Shown: positions 9,691-59,229, counted from the stretch's first letter. The stretch is DNA of 64,000 bases from Candidatus Buchananbacteria bacterium CG10_big_fil_rev_8_21_14_0_10_33_19 (GCA_002773855.1 PEZY01000012.1:367847-431846), one strand, 5' to 3'. Translations and numbers: made by a program. The notes: a model not told the origin generated them from the letters alone.

Positions 9691-12600
9691 CTATTCCCAA
9701 GCTTCTAGCGGTTCACTGGTACTATACTCGACTGATTCAGGCACATCCTTAACGATATCAATATCTTTGAAGCCATTACTACTAAAGACATTGGAAGTTA
9801 CTAATCTTTTCGCATTATTTTCAATATACCAGATATCAGAAGAGTTAACATACTGAATAAGTGAACCATCGGGATACATTAAGGTATCGGCACTAATAGC
9901 ACAACTATCATCTCGAGTATAATCCGATTCAAACGAATTTTGAATTATAACTAATCTTTCCATCCATTTATCACCAAAGCCAAAAGTCGCTGGACAAAGC
10001 ACATCACCAGCTTTCACTACATAAATAATATTACTACCCTTGAACTGAATAAGCTTACTGCCAGGCCTAACTGTAACATTCTTAGCCACTGGGATAGCAT
10101 CAAATTCCGATTGTGTTACCACCTCGACTAAATGATCAGCCCAAGTGCCAGTTCGCCATGACCAAAAAGTTGGTGAGTTAACAAACAACCGTCTTTTACC
10201 ATCTATAGCTACATGATAAACTGCTGGATCATTAGCCACTTTAATTAACCTACCAGTATAAAATTTCTGTCTAATTAATTCTGTTTTAATAATAACGTTA
10301 TTAACAGTATCATCAGTATCAGTAGATGGAGCTCCAGCGCCTGCTGCTCCGCCACCAGCAGTAGCAGTACAACTAGTAGTTTCATTGGGCTTACCTTCTG
10401 GGATATTACAATTGTTAGTATCACTACATGACCTAGATTTAGAACTAGTAACACAGGCTGACCAAGAAGTGCACGTCCAATTAGGCGTACAAGTCACGCT
10501 ACAACCCTGAACCAAAGTTGGTTTGTCTAAAATAGTACCACAAGCGTTTGCATCAGTACAAGTTCTAGATTGAGAGCTACTGGTACAAGTTGACCAAGCA
10601 CTACAAGACCAATTTTCGATACAGGCTGGAGCAATGTCATACACTCTTTCCTTAACCACTTCAGCATTACCAGAAACATCACTAGCATAGAATCTTAAAG
10701 TTTTAGAAGTTGAAATAGCTAAAGCTGAATTATAAACAGCATTTGGTGTACAACCAACACCTAGACAATAATAAATAGTAGCTGGTTCGCTAGCCGACAA
10801 AGTTACTGATATAGCTGAGCTATAAGTACCACTAGCTTTAGAAGCAGTGGTCACTGGCTTAATCGTATCGGCAGCAGCGGAAGCGGTAGAAAAATAGCCA
10901 AAAACGGCCGCTGTTCTAGTTAAATCATCAATCACAAATTCACTGTATTTAGTAATATTAAAATTATCTAAGTATTTTCGGGCTGTTGGATAACCAGGGC
11001 TACCATAGTAAGCTGGATAAGCATTATCTAAAACCGCAATGTAATAACTCTTATATGGCAATGCATTAGCCGGACCATAAACACTAAACCCGGGTATTGG
11101 CTGAGCAATACCATCAAATTCAGACACTTTATTTAATGGATCAACTACCGGATTATCCCCAATGCCAGTAATAAACACTTTAGACAGTGGATTAGCTCCA
11201 AGTTGAAAATCTATATTCTGCTTAGCCCTATCTAAATAATAACTATTACCAGTTAGTTCATGGGCTAAAATGTAAATAAATGAATACCGAGTACTCATTG
11301 ACAATGTACCAAAGCCAACATTAATAAAATCTTTTTCGGCCACCTTATAATTCCACTGGTCTTCATCTTTCTTAAATTTATCCATTAGCTGACTAAAAGC
11401 TGTCATATAGACCGCTTTTCTCTCAGAATTAGCTCCAGCAATATTATAATAATCCCAACCTCGTCTTAGATTAGAAGCACTATAATAATAATCCGTTTTA
11501 GTCCAACTATTTAATTCATTGGTTGGAACCAAGTTAGTAAAAACATCCTCGTATTTTTGTTCGCCAGTTAAAGCATAAAGTTCTATAGCCGCCCAAGCTC
11601 TAGAATCTCTATTATCATTACTCCAATAACAACCAGAACTAACATCGGTTATACCTAAAGCCGGATTACCCTTAGGATTACAATAGGCCTCTTGTTCTGT
11701 TTTTGTAGTATATGGTGGCGGGTTTTGTTCTGGATGGGCTTCTAAGCATTGCCACGCCAGTAGCGCCTTGTCCCTATACCGCTGAGCATCCGTTGGGAAA
11801 AATGGTTGCATAATCCTAGCGGCTTTAGCTAATATGGCGGCGGCAAAACCAGTATCTTCTGTAGATTTAGTAATCACCCAGTGTTTTCTGGTGTCCAAAT
11901 CAGGCATTTTATCAGACCAAGTTTCAAAAGCCACTTTATTAAAAGTACAACCATTACTACTTACCATTTTAGCTATCCAATCTAACTCCCATTTAGACTC
12001 ATCCAATATATCTGGGACTCCATTATGACTCTCTGGAATATTTAATTGATTATCGGAAAAATGGGTTGGTACTATTTCATACATAGTGAAGTAATTATCC
12101 ACTGCTTCAGCCGCTGTTCTAATATATTTATTATAATCAGCCGCATCAAACCAACCACCAGTAAAGTCAGCTTGAGCACCAATTGGCTCGTTGGCATATA
12201 AATCCGGAGATTTATCTTTAATAGAATTATGATAATAACCAGCCGTTGGTTGAGCCGCTCCTCTGCTCCAAATACCGGCATATTGCGAGGTTAAGGCCAT
12301 GCCACTGCGCTGATAATACAGCGCTCTGGCTGTAGTGTAAAAAACATCATTATATATATTATCTCTAATATCAAAATCATAACTTCTACCAATACCATCT
12401 ATCTGTATATAATACGAACCGGGGGTTTCAAAATTTGTAAAATCCAAATACCACACATCCTCCCCAGTGAAAGGCCGAACGCTGTCATTAATATAAAAAT
12501 TATCTGATTCTGATGATTTTATTAAGGCTCCAGTCAAAACTACTTGACCAGTCGTTTTATTTTTAATCTTTGCTATTAGACCAGCGCTTAAAGTCATTTG

Positions 12601-13749
12601 TCCAGCGTCACCTAAGTAGTTACCCACATAAACCCGTTTTGGTGATTTTGGCAGATAACCAACTTGATTTACTTTAATACTAGAACTAATGTCATTATTA
12701 AAATCAAAAGAAAAATTAACACCTCCAACTTTAGGTAGATTACCTATTATATCCTTGACTTGTATAGAAAGGCTATAATTAGCATTGGAAGAAATTGGTG
12801 ATGCTAAATCTAAATAAATATAATCTTTTACCACAGGAGAAAATGAACTTCCGCTAAAATCAGTCACAAACCTCCTTATGCCCACTGAAGAAACATTTAT
12901 TTTACTATTGTCACTGGAATTCACCAGAGTATAATTGGCGACATTTCTAGCTGATGCGAAATTTAATTTTTCATCAATAGTTAACATTAGATTTTTACTG
13001 TCTAAAACCTCTATAGCCTCTACAACCAAACCTTGGGTGTCCTCTAGAGTAATATCATCAATATAAAAACTTTTTGGAGTTTGACTAGCAGGAACAGAAA
13101 AATAAATATTTCTAAAAGCTCCACCAAAATTACCAACAAAAGCACTGCCAGGTATTACCACTTGTCGATAAGTCCCATCTATGACGCCACCACTCACGTA
13201 GGGTAATATATTTAAATTTTGAGAGGCATCATTACCACCAGAATACTGAATCACTATATCTAATGTATTTGCATAAGTACCGGATGTTGTTCTAATCCAA
13301 AATTTAATAGAATCAACCTCACTAAAATTTAAAACGCCCTGGTTGCCATAACCCACGTCTAACCTTGATTTTGTATGATTACCATCAGGCATATCCATTT
13401 TTAAAGCCTTATTGCCTGTCTTAGATAATAATGGATCACTGATAACTGTCAAAGCGTAACCAGTTGTCAACGCTTCAAAATCCTTATCTTCTTCAAAAAT
13501 TACTTTTTTAACCTCATTTACACAAGAAGCCGAACAACCGTCATAGCTATCCACATTACCATCATCACATTGCTCTGCTAAATCAACTACACCATCACCA
13601 CAAGTAGTAGCCGCAATTGTGAAATCACCTAAAACCATCGATTTTGACTTTATTTTAAATAAAACAAAAATCAAACCCATTATACAAATAATTAATATAA
13701 ACAAAGTCAAGAAATATTTTTTTGATGGTCCTAATTTGAATGTTAGCAT
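9691..13749 (-). CDS. Giant membrane-anchored surface protein with a glycoside hydrolase family 9-like catalytic domain, Cys-rich repeats and a shared C-terminal module
   Basis: N-terminal signal anchor; CGDGVVD…CDDGN Cys-rich repeat; GGWFDAADYNKY resembles the GH9 GGWYDAGD signature, with Gly to Ala in the DAGD box; Fn3/CHB_HEX_C-like segment; two C-rich repeats; G/A linker; C-terminal ~130 aa homologous to the C-terminus of ORF 724-2904. Confidence 0.55.
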   Translation of the reverse strand: MLTFKLGPSKKYFLTLFILIICIMGLIFVLFKIKSKSMVLGDFTIAATTCGDGVVDLAEQCDDGNVDSYDGCSASCVNEVKKVIFEEDKDFEALTTGYALTVISDPLLSKTGNKALKMDMPDGNHTKSRLDVGYGNQGVLNFSEVDSIKFWIRTTSGTYANTLDIVIQYSGGNDASQNLNILPYVSGGVIDGTYRQVVIPGSAFVGNFGGAFRNIYFSVPASQTPKSFYIDDITLEDTQGLVVEAIEVLDSKNLMLTIDEKLNFASARNVANYTLVNSSDNSKINVSSVGIRRFVTDFSGSSFSPVVKDYIYLDLASPISSNANYSLSIQVKDIIGNLPKVGGVNFSFDFNNDISSSIKVNQVGYLPKSPKRVYVGNYLGDAGQMTLSAGLIAKIKNKTTGQVVLTGALIKSSESDNFYINDSVRPFTGEDVWYLDFTNFETPGSYYIQIDGIGRSYDFDIRDNIYNDVFYTTARALYYQRSGMALTSQYAGIWSRGAAQPTAGYYHNSIKDKSPDLYANEPIGAQADFTGGWFDAADYNKYIRTAAEAVDNYFTMYEIVPTHFSDNQLNIPESHNGVPDILDESKWELDWIAKMVSSNGCTFNKVAFETWSDKMPDLDTRKHWVITKSTEDTGFAAAILAKAARIMQPFFPTDAQRYRDKALLAWQCLEAHPEQNPPPYTTKTEQEAYCNPKGNPALGITDVSSGCYWSNDNRDSRAWAAIELYALTGEQKYEDVFTNLVPTNELNSWTKTDYYYSASNLRRGWDYYNIAGANSERKAVYMTAFSQLMDKFKKDEDQWNYKVAEKDFINVGFGTLSMSTRYSFIYILAHELTGNSYYLDRAKQNIDFQLGANPLSKVFITGIGDNPVVDPLNKVSEFDGIAQPIPGFSVYGPANALPYKSYYIAVLDNAYPAYYGSPGYPTARKYLDNFNITKYSEFVIDDLTRTAAVFGYFSTASAAADTIKPVTTASKASGTYSSAISVTLSASEPATIYYCLGVGCTPNAVYNSALAISTSKTLRFYASDVSGNAEVVKERVYDIAPACIENWSCSAWSTCTSSSQSRTCTDANACGTILDKPTLVQGCSVTCTPNWTCTSWSACVTSSKSRSCSDTNNCNIPEGKPNETTSCTATAGGGAAGAGAPSTDTDDTVNNVIIKTELIRQKFYTGRLIKVANDPAVYHVAIDGKRRLFVNSPTFWSWRTGTWADHLVEVVTQSEFDAIPVAKNVTVRPGSKLIQFKGSNIIYVVKAGDVLCPATFGFGDKWMERLVIIQNSFESDYTRDDSCAISADTLMYPDGSLIQYVNSSDIWYIENNAKRLVTSNVFSSNGFKDIDIVKDVPESVEYSTSEPLEAWE

Positions 13750-23641: not shown

Positions 23642-24211
23642 TTATCCGAAAACAATCAATGAACAAATAAGAGAAATAACTAAAAAAATAACTACATGAC
23701 ATACAGCTGAAACCGTTTCCCAACTAACTTCGCCATGACTAGCTTCCGCAAATTTATACCTTCGCACATAAGAATAACTGCCATCCTCATTTTTTATACG
23801 ATCGGCCTTATGATAATAACTATATGATCTTAAAATAAAAGTACCAATAACTACCCAAACTAAACTACCACCGATTATCGACCAAACATCTTCGCCAACC
23901 ATTTTCCAGATAATAATACCCACCACCATAATACCAACTGGAGTTTTAACAAACTCGTTGACCTGTGTACCTAACTGATCACAGGCTCCAGAAATCGCTG
24001 TACCAATATTGACGCCAATATTTGTCCACTTTTCAGCCTGATCAGCCATCTCCAGTGGTGTAATCTCACCACTAGCGATTTTTTGCGCCTGTAACACTTG
24101 AGCCGCAGTTTCCGGATCAAGCTTATTCAAATCAATACTAATTTTATTACCCTGAGCAAAAATAGTACCACAAATAAGCACAAAAGCCAGAAAAATAGAT
24201 AATCTTTTCAT
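23642..24211 (-). CDS. Secreted/membrane hypothetical protein
   Basis: Signal peptide (MKRLSIFLAFVLICGTIFAQG), two C-terminal TM segments; promoter TTGACA-17-TATGTT at 24250-24311. Confidence 0.45.
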   Translation of the reverse strand: MKRLSIFLAFVLICGTIFAQGNKISIDLNKLDPETAAQVLQAQKIASGEITPLEMADQAEKWTNIGVNIGTAISGACDQLGTQVNEFVKTPVGIMVVGIIIWKMVGEDVWSIIGGSLVWVVIGTFILRSYSYYHKADRIKNEDGSYSYVRRYKFAEASHGEVSWETVSAVCHVVIFLVISLICSLIVFG

Positions 24212-24319
24212 GTTTCTGATTCCTTCTAGTTGAAAGGTGCTACTAGTGCTAAGATTGGCTTAGCACTTTCTGATCTATAACATAAAACAATATTAGAAAA
24301 TTGTCAATAAAAAAAGAGC

Positions 24320-24519
24320 CACCAGCAGCTCTTTGACTTTGTGTCTTGCATTCGGTCGTCCCTACTAACAAGCAAGCTAGCGAATCAATATTAGCTGGAG
24401 GCGAACCTCATAAGCCTATGGTACAACCAGTGTCTACTAGACATGGCGGAGATATTGATTCTACTGGTGACTAGGCCAAGACCTTAGAGAAACGCTTTTG
24501 GCCCAATTACGCTTCAGGT
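24320..24519 (-). ncRNA. Unclassified structured small RNA (~200 nt) with its own promoter and terminator
   Basis: Minus-strand promoter TTGACA(24549-24554)-17-AGTAAT(24526-24531). GC-rich (~50%) transcript with several stable hairpins (GGCCAA…UUGGCC; GAGG-UUCG-CCUC tetraloop; AGCUA…UAGCU). Ends in GAGCUGCUGGUGGCUC + U7. No ORF with an RBS. Confidence 0.4.
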
Positions 24520-24587
24520 AATTTCATTACTGTAAATATAAATTAATTTGTCAATAAAAAAACAGCTTGTCTAAAGCCGTTCTTTTT

Positions 24588-25140
24588 TGTCTAGATAAAT
24601 CTATAAGCCGAATTCTGTTCCTGATGGGTCTGTCTCCAAATAGTCTTTTGTTTATAAGTTTTCACAATTTTGAAATAAATTTTTTAAACAATTTTTAAAG
24701 TTTAGTGGAGCTAAGCTGAAAAAATTTTTATAAAATTTAGACAAAATTTGGAAATTTTAACAAATATGCTATTTGGTGACAGACCCATACAAAGAGATGA
24801 CAATCTATCTGGATTAACTATTACTAGTTAATTCTAGCCCCCTACTATATTTGGGGTTGCACTAAGTAGAGTTTACCACGAACTGCCGGTCACCGACAGC
24901 TGAGTCACGTAGCTTTAGACTAAGGGGATATCCCGTTCTTATTCTAAAACATCATGACACTTTTCACCTTTCATTTGCCGAAGCAAACTAGTATTGTCTC
25001 TGTGGCACTGGTCCTAACTATACCTCGCGATATAGCTGGTGGGCGTTACCCACTACCATGACTTTAATCATAGTGATTAAAGAGTGTTCGGACTTTCCTC
25101 TCCGATTAAAACCGGAGTAGTCATCCAACTTATCTAGACA
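24588..25140 (-). ncRNA. rnpB: RNase P RNA (bacterial type A) with a long AT-rich insertion
   Basis: Ordered conserved elements on the minus strand: P1 (5' gucuagauaag / 3' cuuaucuagac), P3 hairpin, P4 5' strand GAGGAAAGUCCGAAC, GGUAACGCC, AGUGCCACAGAGA, GGUGAAA, GGUAAACUC, and P4 3' strand ACAGAAUUCGGCUUAU with compensatory GG/CC to AA/UU change versus E. coli. A consensus promoter puts the TSS at P1. Confidence 0.8.
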
Positions 25141-25145
25141 GTCAT

Positions 25146-25174
25146 ATTGTATCATAAATATAGTAAAATGTCAA
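25146..25174 (-). promoter_or_regulatory. Promoter of rnpB (TTGACA-17-TACAAT)
   Basis: -35 TTGACA (complement of 25169-25174), 17-nt spacer, -10 TACAAT (complement of 25146-25151); predicted TSS coincides with the 5' end of RNase P P1. Confidence 0.65.
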
Positions 25175-25236
25175 TACTTATTTTAAAATAAATAACAAAA
25201 AAATCCACCTCAAAAATGTTAACTTTTAATATCTTT

Positions 25237-45223: not shown

Positions 45224-45257
45224 GGATTTTTTATCATATAAATATCTTCATAAACCT

Positions 45258-45481
45258 GCGACAATTAAAAAATTTAAGGAGAAGATGAAACGAGAGCCCT
45301 GGCGATTGGGCGTCGTCTACATCCAAAATTTTCAACTGTTTGAACCATTTTCGACATATCTAGAATAATGAAAATGGTGAGTTTTGAAAATTAGCCAGGC
45401 GAAGTTTTAGATTCGACTATAAATTTTTTACTGTCGCGATTTTTGCGGTACTTTTTCTAAAAAAGTACCAAGGTGATTTAG
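45258..45481. repeat. Copy A of a ~225-bp hairpin-rich direct repeat (downstream of uvrA)
   Basis: About 85% identical to 48125-48356; conserved blocks gcgacaatt…aaggagaagatgaaacgagagccct.gcgattgggcgt.gtctac…gttttgaaaattagc…cgaagttttag.ttcgactataaattttttactgtcgcgatttttgcggtactttttctaaaaaagtacca. Confidence 0.75.
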
Positions 45482-48124: not shown

Positions 48125-48356
48125 ATAAATTAATGCGACAATTTTAAAATTTAAGGAGAAGATGAAACGAGAGCCCTAGCGATTGGGCGTTGTCTACGCC
48201 CAAAATTTTCAATGTTTGAGAAACTTGTTCACTTATTTAAATAAAAAAGTTTCGAGTTTTGAAAATTAGCGGGACGAAGTTTTAGCTTCGACTATAAATT
48301 TTTTACTGTCGCGATTTTTGCGGTACTTTTTCTAAAAAAGTACCAATGTGATTTAG
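48125..48356. repeat. Copy B of the ~225-bp direct repeat (between uvrB and uvrA)
   Basis: See copy A; contains hairpins gggcgttgtctacgccc, cgaagc…cttcg and ggtactttttctaaaaaagtacc. Confidence 0.75.
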
Positions 48357-58886: not shown

Positions 58887-58945
58887 AATTAAAGTATATC
58901 AATAATTTAAAAAGAAGAATACTTTAATTTGTTTTATGCTCGGGG

Positions 58946-59108
58946 GCAGGGATTTACGACGTAAACCGCCTGCCAAAAGCAGGACGGTTTACTCTGTCCT
59001 GGGTTGGCGTCTAATCTGCCACCGGCAGATTATTCGACGTTCGCTGTGTCGTTTCGGCTTCCGCCTCCACTCCTGGCTCACTTCCAACCCGTTCGAATCC
59101 CTGCCCCC
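58946..59108 (+). other. GC-rich structured element (~165 nt) of unknown function beside tRNA-Gln; tRNA-derived ends
   Basis: Closed by a 13-bp helix (5' gggggcagggatt / 3' aatccctgccccc). The 5' end belongs to a 27-nt direct repeat of the tRNA-Gln 3' end. The 3' end is an inverted 18-nt copy of the tRNA T-loop/acceptor. Internal hairpins (caggac…gtcctg; atctgcc-acc-ggcagat). A bidirectional terminator follows at 59121-59152. Confidence 0.4.
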
Positions 59109-59120
59109 TCCGAAAAATAA

Positions 59121-59152
59121 AACAAAAACACCGCTTCCAGCGGTGTTTTTGT
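59121..59152. terminator. Bidirectional hairpin terminator (A-tract/T-tract flanked)
   Basis: acaccgc-ttccag-cggtgt hairpin between aaaaataaaacaaaa and tttttgtttt. Confidence 0.65.
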
Positions 59153-59158
59153 TTTATG

Positions 59159-59229
59159 CTCGGGGGCAGGGATTCGAACCCCGATACCTTGGACCAGAAC
59201 CAAGAGTCCTACCGTTAGACGACCCCCGA
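59159..59229 (-). tRNA. tRNA-Gln (anticodon CUG)
   Basis: Minus-strand cloverleaf folded by hand: acceptor UCGGGGG/CCCCCGA (U1:A72), D-arm GUCU-AACGGUA-GGAC, anticodon arm CUUGG-UUCUGGU-CCAAG, T-arm CGGGG-UUCGAAU-CCCUG, discriminator G; CCA not encoded. Confidence 0.8.

Follow-up and report, generated by a model that had tools for sequence, protein, structure and literature searches.

Structured RNAs such as the RNA subunit of RNase P and the ribosomal RNAs (rRNAs) are thought to grow by helices added onto helices, and the donor material is rarely visible. The RNase P RNA of Escherichia coli, M1 RNA, is ~377 nt long. In heterocyst-forming cyanobacteria, tandem heptamers of the short tandemly repeated repetitive (STRR) type are said to have been described by Vioque in 1997 (Nucleic Acids Res 25:3471) within helix P12 of rnpB, the RNase P RNA gene. 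RNase P RNAs from the candidate phyla radiation (CPR, Patescibacteria) show large helix extensions, an extended P15 and missing helices, and have needed lowered thresholds and manual refolding for their recognition (Lui, Nielsen & Arkin 2021, PMC8172020). Many lineages can do without the peripheral helix P19, whose length varies and which stacks on the P2/P3 axis (PMC12974513). Here we describe a 64,000-nt stretch of CPR DNA (the window; coordinates are positions within it, and L-numbers denote fetched comparison loci) whose minus strand encodes a type-A rnpB with a 161-bp palindrome in the P19 loop. Very probably this insert is a mobile palindrome resembling a miniature inverted-repeat transposable element (MITE) that was trapped in the P19 loop of an RNase P RNA gene appearing functional. 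CPR RNase P RNAs with extended helices have been published before (PMC8172020), and the cyanobacterial STRR provides a precedent for a repeat in rnpB. What appear to be new are a P19 extension this large, the identity of the extension as a transposable palindrome with an identifiable pre-insertion state, and the repeat family itself.

A scan of the whole window with Rfam cmscan reported rnpB as the sole ribozyme, a minus-strand match to RNaseP_bact_a (RF00010; 126.3 bits, gathering score 100, E=2.8e-38), and type A won the clan competition among the RNase P models. The locus is a genuine type-A bacterial RNase P RNA gene and an ordinary member of RF00010. No second rnpB was present in the 64-kb window or in ~20 kb of additional flank. 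The original prediction had proposed a type-A RNase P RNA of about 553 nt at this place, open to refutation by a failing covariance-model (CM) score; the model passed its threshold, and the RNA measures 553 nt (25140..24588). The claim that annotation based on open reading frames (ORFs) had missed the gene was borne out as well, since in two assemblies the public calls show nothing there but a 45-aa ORF that covers the RNA's 5' part. This ORF lies wholly within the 5' half (window 25018-25155, minus; 3487-3624 in L001/L005) and is almost certainly spurious. The promoter had likewise been read correctly: TTGACA-17-TACAAT was found with 11 of 12 matches, and the predicted start, ~6-7 nt downstream, falls at the foot of P1.

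The core elements P1, P2, P3, the P4 pseudoknot strands, P5-P12, P15 and P18 are all present in order. In the minimum free energy structure of the 553-nt RNA, P1 is formed by UGUCUAGAUAAG paired with UUUAUCUAGACA, and the two halves of the P4 pseudoknot are found as AGGAAAGUCCG... at 25099..25086 and ACAGAAnnCGGCUUA at 24618..24604. P15 (24839-24856, minus) closes directly on a 10-nt loop, AAAUAUAGUA, which does not contain the GGU that pairs with the tRNA 3'-CCA, and P16 and P17 are not present. These absences are typical for CPR; the L15 GGU is missing in about two-thirds of CPR RNase P RNAs and is not needed for membership (PMC8172020). The CM alignment spans 25136 to 24757 and ends wrongly at its 3' side because the model cannot bridge the insert: the 3' strands of P4 and P1 are forced onto AT-rich sequence in low-quality columns. 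The true 3' part of the gene was read directly from the sequence and not from this alignment. The features, from promoter to terminator, are as follows.

25146..25174, minus strand: sigma-70-type promoter TTGACA-17-TACAAT with TG extension; 11/12 matches, conserved in L086
24588..25140, minus strand: rnpB, type-A RNase P RNA; 553 nt, or 392 nt without the insert; RF00010, 126.3 bits
25140..25129, minus strand: P1 5' strand TGTCTAGATAAG; pairs with the P1 3' strand in the full-length fold
25086..25099, minus strand: universally conserved P4 5' strand AGGAAAGUCCGAAC; Rfam alignment and sequence
24796..24801, minus strand: P2 3' strand GUCAUC; pairs with GGAUGAC at 25126..25120, CM alignment
24787..24795, minus strand: original P19 stem, 5' side UCUUUGUAU; pairs with 24625..24619, at the position of the relatives' short P19 hairpins
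24626..24786, minus strand: 161-bp palindromic MITE-like element in the P19 loop; RNA positions 355-515, 25% GC
24768..24786, minus strand: left terminal inverted repeat GGGTCTGTCACCAAATAGC; sequence and family comparison
24626..24645, minus strand: right terminal inverted repeat GACTATTTGGAGACAGACCC; sequence and family comparison
24619..24625, minus strand: original P19 stem, 3' side AUCAGGA; folds and sequence
24604..24618, minus strand: P4 3' strand ACAGAATTCGGCTTA (RNA ACAGAAUUCGGCUUA); read from sequence, identical in L086 and L092
24599..24588, minus strand: P1 3' strand TTTATCTAGACA; read from sequence
24556..24581, minus strand: terminator-like hairpin AACGGCUU-uagac-AAGCUGUU followed by a U-run; read from sequence

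All of the excess length forms one block at P19, between the 3' strands of P2 and P4. GC content is 24% in a 157-nt stretch of the insert and 41% in the remaining RNA. The P19 region (24800..24620, 181 nt) folded into a single long hairpin of -49.8 kcal/mol (z = -7.6), with 0 of 200 shuffles as stable, and within the partition function of the 553-nt RNA the insert was expected to form ~60 pairs within itself and 0.00 to the remainder of the molecule. Its 19-20-bp termini pair with one mismatch. At the base of the extended P19 the folds give 3 bp, a bulge, 11 bp, an A/A mismatch and 8 bp, the flanks adjoining the insert now pair as UUG/CAG plus AU/AU, and the whole of P19 is ~177 nt long. The original prediction had described a long helix enclosing roughly 130 nt at about 20% GC, within some 230 nt of spacing. 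Its arms are real and the single AT-rich block was confirmed, but the enclosed segment measures 122 nt at 17% GC, and the distance from GTAGGGGG to ACAGAA is ~220 nt. The insert is short (<~300 bp), non-coding and bounded by terminal inverted repeats, as MITEs are; in shape it also resembles the intervening sequences (IVSs) of rRNA genes, being an extended stem-loop in place of a terminal loop, sporadic among relatives. The only listed ORF (minimum 40 aa) overlapping it is a 43-aa frame with a TTG start on the opposite strand (24567..24698), and a scanner found no intrinsic-terminator-like site inside it on the sense strand.

Flanking DNA of relatives was obtained via exact-protein look-ups of RecJ homologues. 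A sister species was represented by two sequencing runs (L086 and L087; RecJ 88% identical) and an outgroup within the Buchananbacteria by L092/L093 (RecJ 65%). Eight further Patescibacteria rnpB genes, all exceeding the Rfam threshold, were taken from beside RecJ in the genome collection (RecJ identity <=48% among the matches listed). At two other RecJ homologues (L088 and L090, 76-78% identity) synteny was broken and no rnpB lay nearby. The sister locus has the same promoter-rnpB-terminator layout, with an RNA of 386 nt that scored 159.6 bits in a correct end-to-end CM alignment. Its P19 is a 12-nt hairpin, UUCCGCAAGGAA, and that of the outgroup is also 12 nt, UCCCUAACAGGA. When 24626..24786 were removed, the window RNA aligned with that of L086 end to end at ~95% identity, the differences being concentrated at the P12 tip and P19. 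The alignment, read by eye, showed that a hairpin in the P8/P9 region changes from CCAGCUAUA/UAUAGUUAGG in the window to CCGGCUAUA/UAUAGUCAGG in L086, a compensatory A-U to G-C replacement, and that its tetraloop stays GNRA (GCGA to GUGA). The compensatory change and the retained loop type suggest that structural selection continued to act on the gene.

The distance from the J18/2 motif to the P4 3' strand was 18-41 nt in nine of ten other Patescibacteria rnpB genes, compared with ~190 nt in the window; in the tenth (L031) the spacer was equally short by eye. P19 is absent or short in these genes, and its length is all-or-none among relatives, 12 nt in the sister and 177 nt in the window with no intermediates. 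By parsimony, the short P19 of the sister, the outgroup and the others points to one gain of ~160 nt on the window's own branch, and the insertion would then have happened after the split from the sister species. Comparison with related lineages had been put forward as a check on the expansion, and it places the excess at P19 alone, in a gene whose relatives are without the block.

Other helices of Patescibacteria rnpB vary in length too. The outgroup genes (L092:6075-6598, minus, and L093; 528 nt) combine their short P19 with a 131-nt AT-rich hairpin at the P12 tip, of which BLAST found no second copy in any fetched locus, and the gene at L009:6328-6781 has a ~100-nt GC-rich P12 extension with a P19 of ~26 nt. 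Helix-tip expansions look frequent and lineage-specific among Patescibacteria rnpB genes.

The identity of the insert was established through a dispersed family of palindromes. The metagenome scan pattern was the terminus GGGTCTGTCNCCAAATAGY, matching both insert arms. Sixteen of its 22 matches were single-arm chance or coding-sequence matches; the other six included a 28-nt remnant of one end in L109, a second metagenome contig, and four full-length elements of 158-163 bp that share the insert ends GGGTCTGTCRCCAAATAGC ... CCTATTYGGCGACAGACCC and occupy unrelated intergenic sites.

L094 copy: between a small ORF and tuf, in a fusA-tuf-rpsJ cluster
L102 copy: between a 433-aa gene and relA/spoT
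L098 copy: between a terminator and the next gene's promoter
L110 copy (L110:831-992): on a short contig

An nhmmer profile added a second copy on the L102 contig, a second copy on L098 truncated by the contig end, and the 28-nt remnant in L109 (L109:413-440, only one end). The two L102 copies (10496-10658 and 12548-12710) stand in opposite orientation and flank the 433-aa hypothetical gene beside relA/spoT; the downstream copy has co-varying non-consensus termini, AGACTTGTCCCC.../...GGGACAAGTCT. The L098 contig begins inside an element copy (L098:1-93), which indicates that the assembly broke inside the repeat. The palindrome thus breaks assemblies and leaves truncated remnants. A family hidden Markov model (HMM) built without the window copy matched 24786..24626 over its full length (E=3.7e-18), and this was its sole match in 64 kb. 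The hosts of the other copies are other CPR, namely Parcubacteria GW2011_GWC2_39_14 and a Patescibacteria metagenome-assembled genome; the L094 copy is 93% identical to the L102 copies and comes from the same metagenome.

Mobility of the family was seen at two intergenic sites. The empty site in L117/L119 reads ...CATGACTCTGGTATCCC... (core ACTCTGGTATCC), and the occupied site in L098 reads ...CATAACTCTG, the 158-bp element, then CTCTGTATCCC..., so that ACTCTG precedes the element and CTCTGTATCC follows it. This is a 5-bp direct duplication, CTCTG, with a one-base difference from L117/L119. A copy in L102 is flanked by TTAT/TTAT, a 4-bp duplication, and its site is empty in the related strain L121, where the upstream copy is missing. 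These duplications and empty sites point to cut-and-paste or replicative DNA transposition with a 4-5-bp staggered cut. Presence/absence polymorphism therefore exists for the rnpB site (window vs. L086/L087) and for the intergenic ones (L098 vs. L117/L119, L102 vs. L121). The original prediction had left the choice between an expansion segment and a nested small insertion undecided. The family, its duplications and empty sites, and the sister gene without the block favour insertion over expansion in place.

Sequence conservation in the family is confined to the ~19-bp termini. Between subfamilies the interiors share 45-63% identity, and in the L094/L102 subfamily 92-94%, while length is held at 158-163 bp and every copy forms a near-complete hairpin. 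In an alignment of six copies, 22 of 49 consensus pairs were changed on both sides, and 86.7% of cells at paired positions could pair, compared with 77.0 +/- 1.3% after shuffling (reached in 0 of 500 shuffles) and 34-55% when the partner was slid. The hairpin shape of the family is conserved through compensatory changes. The better-folding strand is antisense in the window and in L094/L102, sense in L098, and about equal to its complement in L110. Selection of the hairpin on one RNA strand was rejected on these grounds, and in view of the lack of a consistently better-folding strand the family is treated as a palindrome at the DNA level. An orientation bias relative to neighbouring genes was also considered but abandoned: with a terminator on one side of the L098 copy and the next promoter on the other, co-transcription is not established.

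The family is apparently undescribed. The element matched no Rfam family, BLAST gave no plasmid match for L110:831-992 and no phage match for the whole window RNA, and the terminus did not occur in the supplement of PMC11270868. A terminus scan of viral contigs gave one match without a second arm, which was judged to be chance. A limited search of the literature found no link between MITEs and Patescibacteria. The terminus (G)GGGTCTGTCGCC is presumably similar to the start of Tn3-family repeats, GGGGTCTGACGC... (5-bp duplications), and to IS1 ends, a resemblance that we do not claim.

Several observations weigh against a mobile palindrome trapped in a functional gene. The duplication at the window copy is no longer than AT/AT, 2 bp (GTAT, element, ATCAGG), unlike those of L098 and L102, and transposition into rnpB is therefore deduced from family membership and not seen directly. 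Beyond the rnpB copy, no other was present in ~84 kb of this genome (window plus ~20 kb flank), where the family may have died out or almost done so. No transposase or autonomous parent with matching termini was found in the fetched loci. Of all family copies, that of the window forms the least stable hairpin (-44.8 vs. -65 to -75 kcal/mol) and may be decaying; it is also the most AT-rich, with termini that depart from the family consensus at three places. The activity of the gene and the fate of its hairpin are judged from sequence and predicted folds. These features would fit an older insertion with flanks since remodelled, possibly by selection for a continuous helix. Alternatively, a genome that purges its repeats may have kept this copy in an essential RNA, from which it could not be deleted imprecisely.

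How the gene might tolerate the mobile palindrome can be outlined from the folds. A 161-bp non-coding palindrome of the MITE kind, with 19-20-bp terminal repeats and an AT-rich hairpin interior, would have inserted into the terminal loop of P19, a helix that points away from the core. The element would pair only with itself, and the transcript would still form P1, P2 and P4 and carry a P19 extended by ~60 bp. Such a self-contained hairpin should leave P1, P2, P4 and the tRNA-binding face undisturbed. The peripheral position and the self-pairing would explain why the insertion was tolerated and why it is identical across the five sampled assemblies.

For the RNA product we favour retention, the hairpin probably being kept in the mature RNA as a ~60-bp extension of P19. 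The strongest competitor is cleavage by RNase III or another double-strand-specific nuclease at the ~22-bp terminal duplex without religation, a possible but clearly less probable outcome. The RNase P RNA would then consist of a 5' piece of ~360-375 nt and a 3' piece of ~40-55 nt containing the 3' strands of P4 and P1, held together by P1, P4 and the P19 stump. Duplexes of ~22 bp are of the length class of RNase III substrates, and the base of the extended P19 (3, 11 and 8 bp) belongs to it, although in the window copy this duplex has a mismatch and a bulge. We know of no naturally split bacterial RNase P RNA, which counts against cleavage. As with IVSs, the insert takes the place of a terminal loop and its occurrence among close relatives is patchy. 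RNase III-type IVSs have been suggested as an explanation for short insertions without ORFs in CPR rRNA genes (PMC11270868). Hairpin MITEs of the Correia type can bind RNase III and be cleaved or protected by it (PMC2649163). Cleavage here is a prediction from sequence and fold. No RNase III signature motif occurs within the 64-kb window, a negative that is uninformative, the window being part of a genome. If the palindrome were cut out and left unjoined, the bacterium would depend on a split, two-piece ribozyme and, more generally, mobile palindromes in loops would be a live source of CPR expansion segments in RNase P RNA and rRNAs, a proposal that we consider doubtful.

Splicing, pseudogenisation and artefact are all unlikely. 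A recent pseudogene, with tRNA 5' processing left to another rnpB or to a protein-only RNase P, is improbable. The inspected portion of the genome amounts to ~84 kb, and the CM score of the window gene is 126 bits, down from 160 bits for the sister gene; that fall is fully accounted for by the model's inability to span the insert. The promoter, the terminator and every core motif are intact, the site of insertion is a peripheral loop where harmlessness is expected, and the insert is identical in all sampled assemblies. We conclude that the window rnpB appears functional, its continued activity being suggested by these features of the sequence. The promoter, RNA and insert were base-identical to the window in five loci from five public metagenome assemblies (ENA, JGI), and such agreement among independent assemblies argues that the insert is not an assembly artefact.

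Growth in place by slippage or duplication within P19 is very improbable. The block lies at a helix tip and continues the helix, large helix extensions are known in CPR RNase P RNAs (PMC8172020), and L092 and L009 provide large extensions of P12. Homologues of the same length and termini are nevertheless intergenic in other genomes, with duplications and empty sites, and no lengths intermediate between the sister's and the window's P19 were seen. A self-splicing intron or other ribozyme element, removed with religation of the RNA, can be practically dismissed, for although group I and group II introns do occur in CPR structural RNAs (PMC11270868; PMC8172020), a simple hairpin of 161 nt and 25% GC is too small for either, other copies of the family are intergenic, and Rfam at E<=10 returned no intron or ribozyme family over 24200..24850 and just generic long-hairpin miRNA models, far below threshold, over the insert.

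The host of the mobile palindrome is an uncultured Patescibacteria (CPR) bacterium from groundwater, Falkowbacteria-like; public records assign the RecJ protein of the window to Candidatus Falkowbacteria, and the proteins related to it to Buchananbacteria or Patescibacteria. Window GC is ~34%, and the genes around rnpB encode RNase HI, RecJ, LepA, MurJ and glycosyltransferases. At least 24 contigs encode exactly this RNase HI protein. The sister promoter in L086 reads TTGACA...TGATACAAT. At the position equivalent to the terminator, L086 has a different hairpin with a U-run; a simple terminator scanner did not call the window hairpin (24581..24556). L086 lacks both a 189-aa ORF for a membrane protein (23642..24211; no recorded Pfam hit) and the ~375 nt of non-coding sequence from there up to rnpB, and a 467-aa sugar-transferase gene directly follows its rnpB; window 23642-24587 is a second indel between the two sister species beside this gene. 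An IS481-like transposase gene (310 aa; HTH_32, rve, rve_3) lies ~6-7 kb past the window's high-coordinate end (L123:2720-3652). It was rejected as a parent of the insert, its ~22-bp inverted repeats, GTACATACATTTGGCGGTTTTC, being unrelated to the insert termini.

Elsewhere in the window, a tRNA-Gln(CUG) gene (59158..59229, minus) is accompanied by an inverted repeat, 58923-58954 / 59096-59127, with GGGGGCAGGGATT, similar to a tRNA 3' end, in its arms; a duplicated end of a tRNA, for instance a scar of integration, is one possible origin. Two direct-repeat pairs with 92-95% identity are found at 45257-45481 and 48134-48356, separated by 2.9 kb, and weaker repeats occupy the interval at 46-48 kb. 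Their appearance is that of tandem paralogous genes whose ends were homogenised recently.

In the window rnpB the donor of an added helix is identifiable: a ~160-bp palindrome stands in the P19 loop, the sister species preserves the pre-insertion state, and free copies exist elsewhere. This offers a concrete and testable route from selfish DNA to an "expansion segment". Some of the many short insertions without ORFs that have been reported in CPR rRNA genes may likewise have arisen from mobile palindromes. If palindromes do seed helices, they would be a present-day example of the accretion proposed for the evolution of RNase P RNA and rRNA. In practical terms, the locus shows why CMs truncate or under-score such genes (126 vs. 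160 bits, and a wrong 3' end).

Among known systems, the Correia repeat enclosed elements of Neisseria (PMC2649163) are close in kind to the palindrome family: they are likewise ~100-160 bp long, non-coding and dispersed, have terminal repeats, vary in presence between strains and form RNA hairpins if co-transcribed. The palindrome family differs in having no sequence similarity to them, a 4-5-bp duplication in place of TA, a whole interior kept palindromic by compensatory changes, and no parent transposase in the fetched loci. The IVSs of 23S rRNA and the ORF-less insertions of CPR rRNA genes (PMC11270868) are also AT-rich stem-loops that replace a terminal loop of an essential RNA, are sporadic, and are suspected to be horizontal or mobile. 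In the window, however, the host RNA is RNase P RNA and excision by RNase III is a candidate fate, and dispersed intergenic copies with target duplications are not a generally known property of IVS families, in contrast to the palindrome family. The cyanobacterial STRR is another genome-wide repeat that lengthens a peripheral helix of RNase P RNA, but as tandem heptamers in P12, whereas the window has a single ~160-bp palindrome with terminal inverted repeats in P19. Compared with RF00010 and E. coli M1 RNA, the window RNA has the same core elements in order and passes the curated threshold, and it differs in its length of 553 nt, its ~177-nt P19, and the lack of P16/P17 and of the L15 GGU. 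The diverged CPR RNase P RNAs (PMC8172020) belong to the same group and carry the same kind of CM-breaking extensions; the one illustrated among them is in P15 with no origin given, whereas that of the window is in P19 and is traced to a mobile element.

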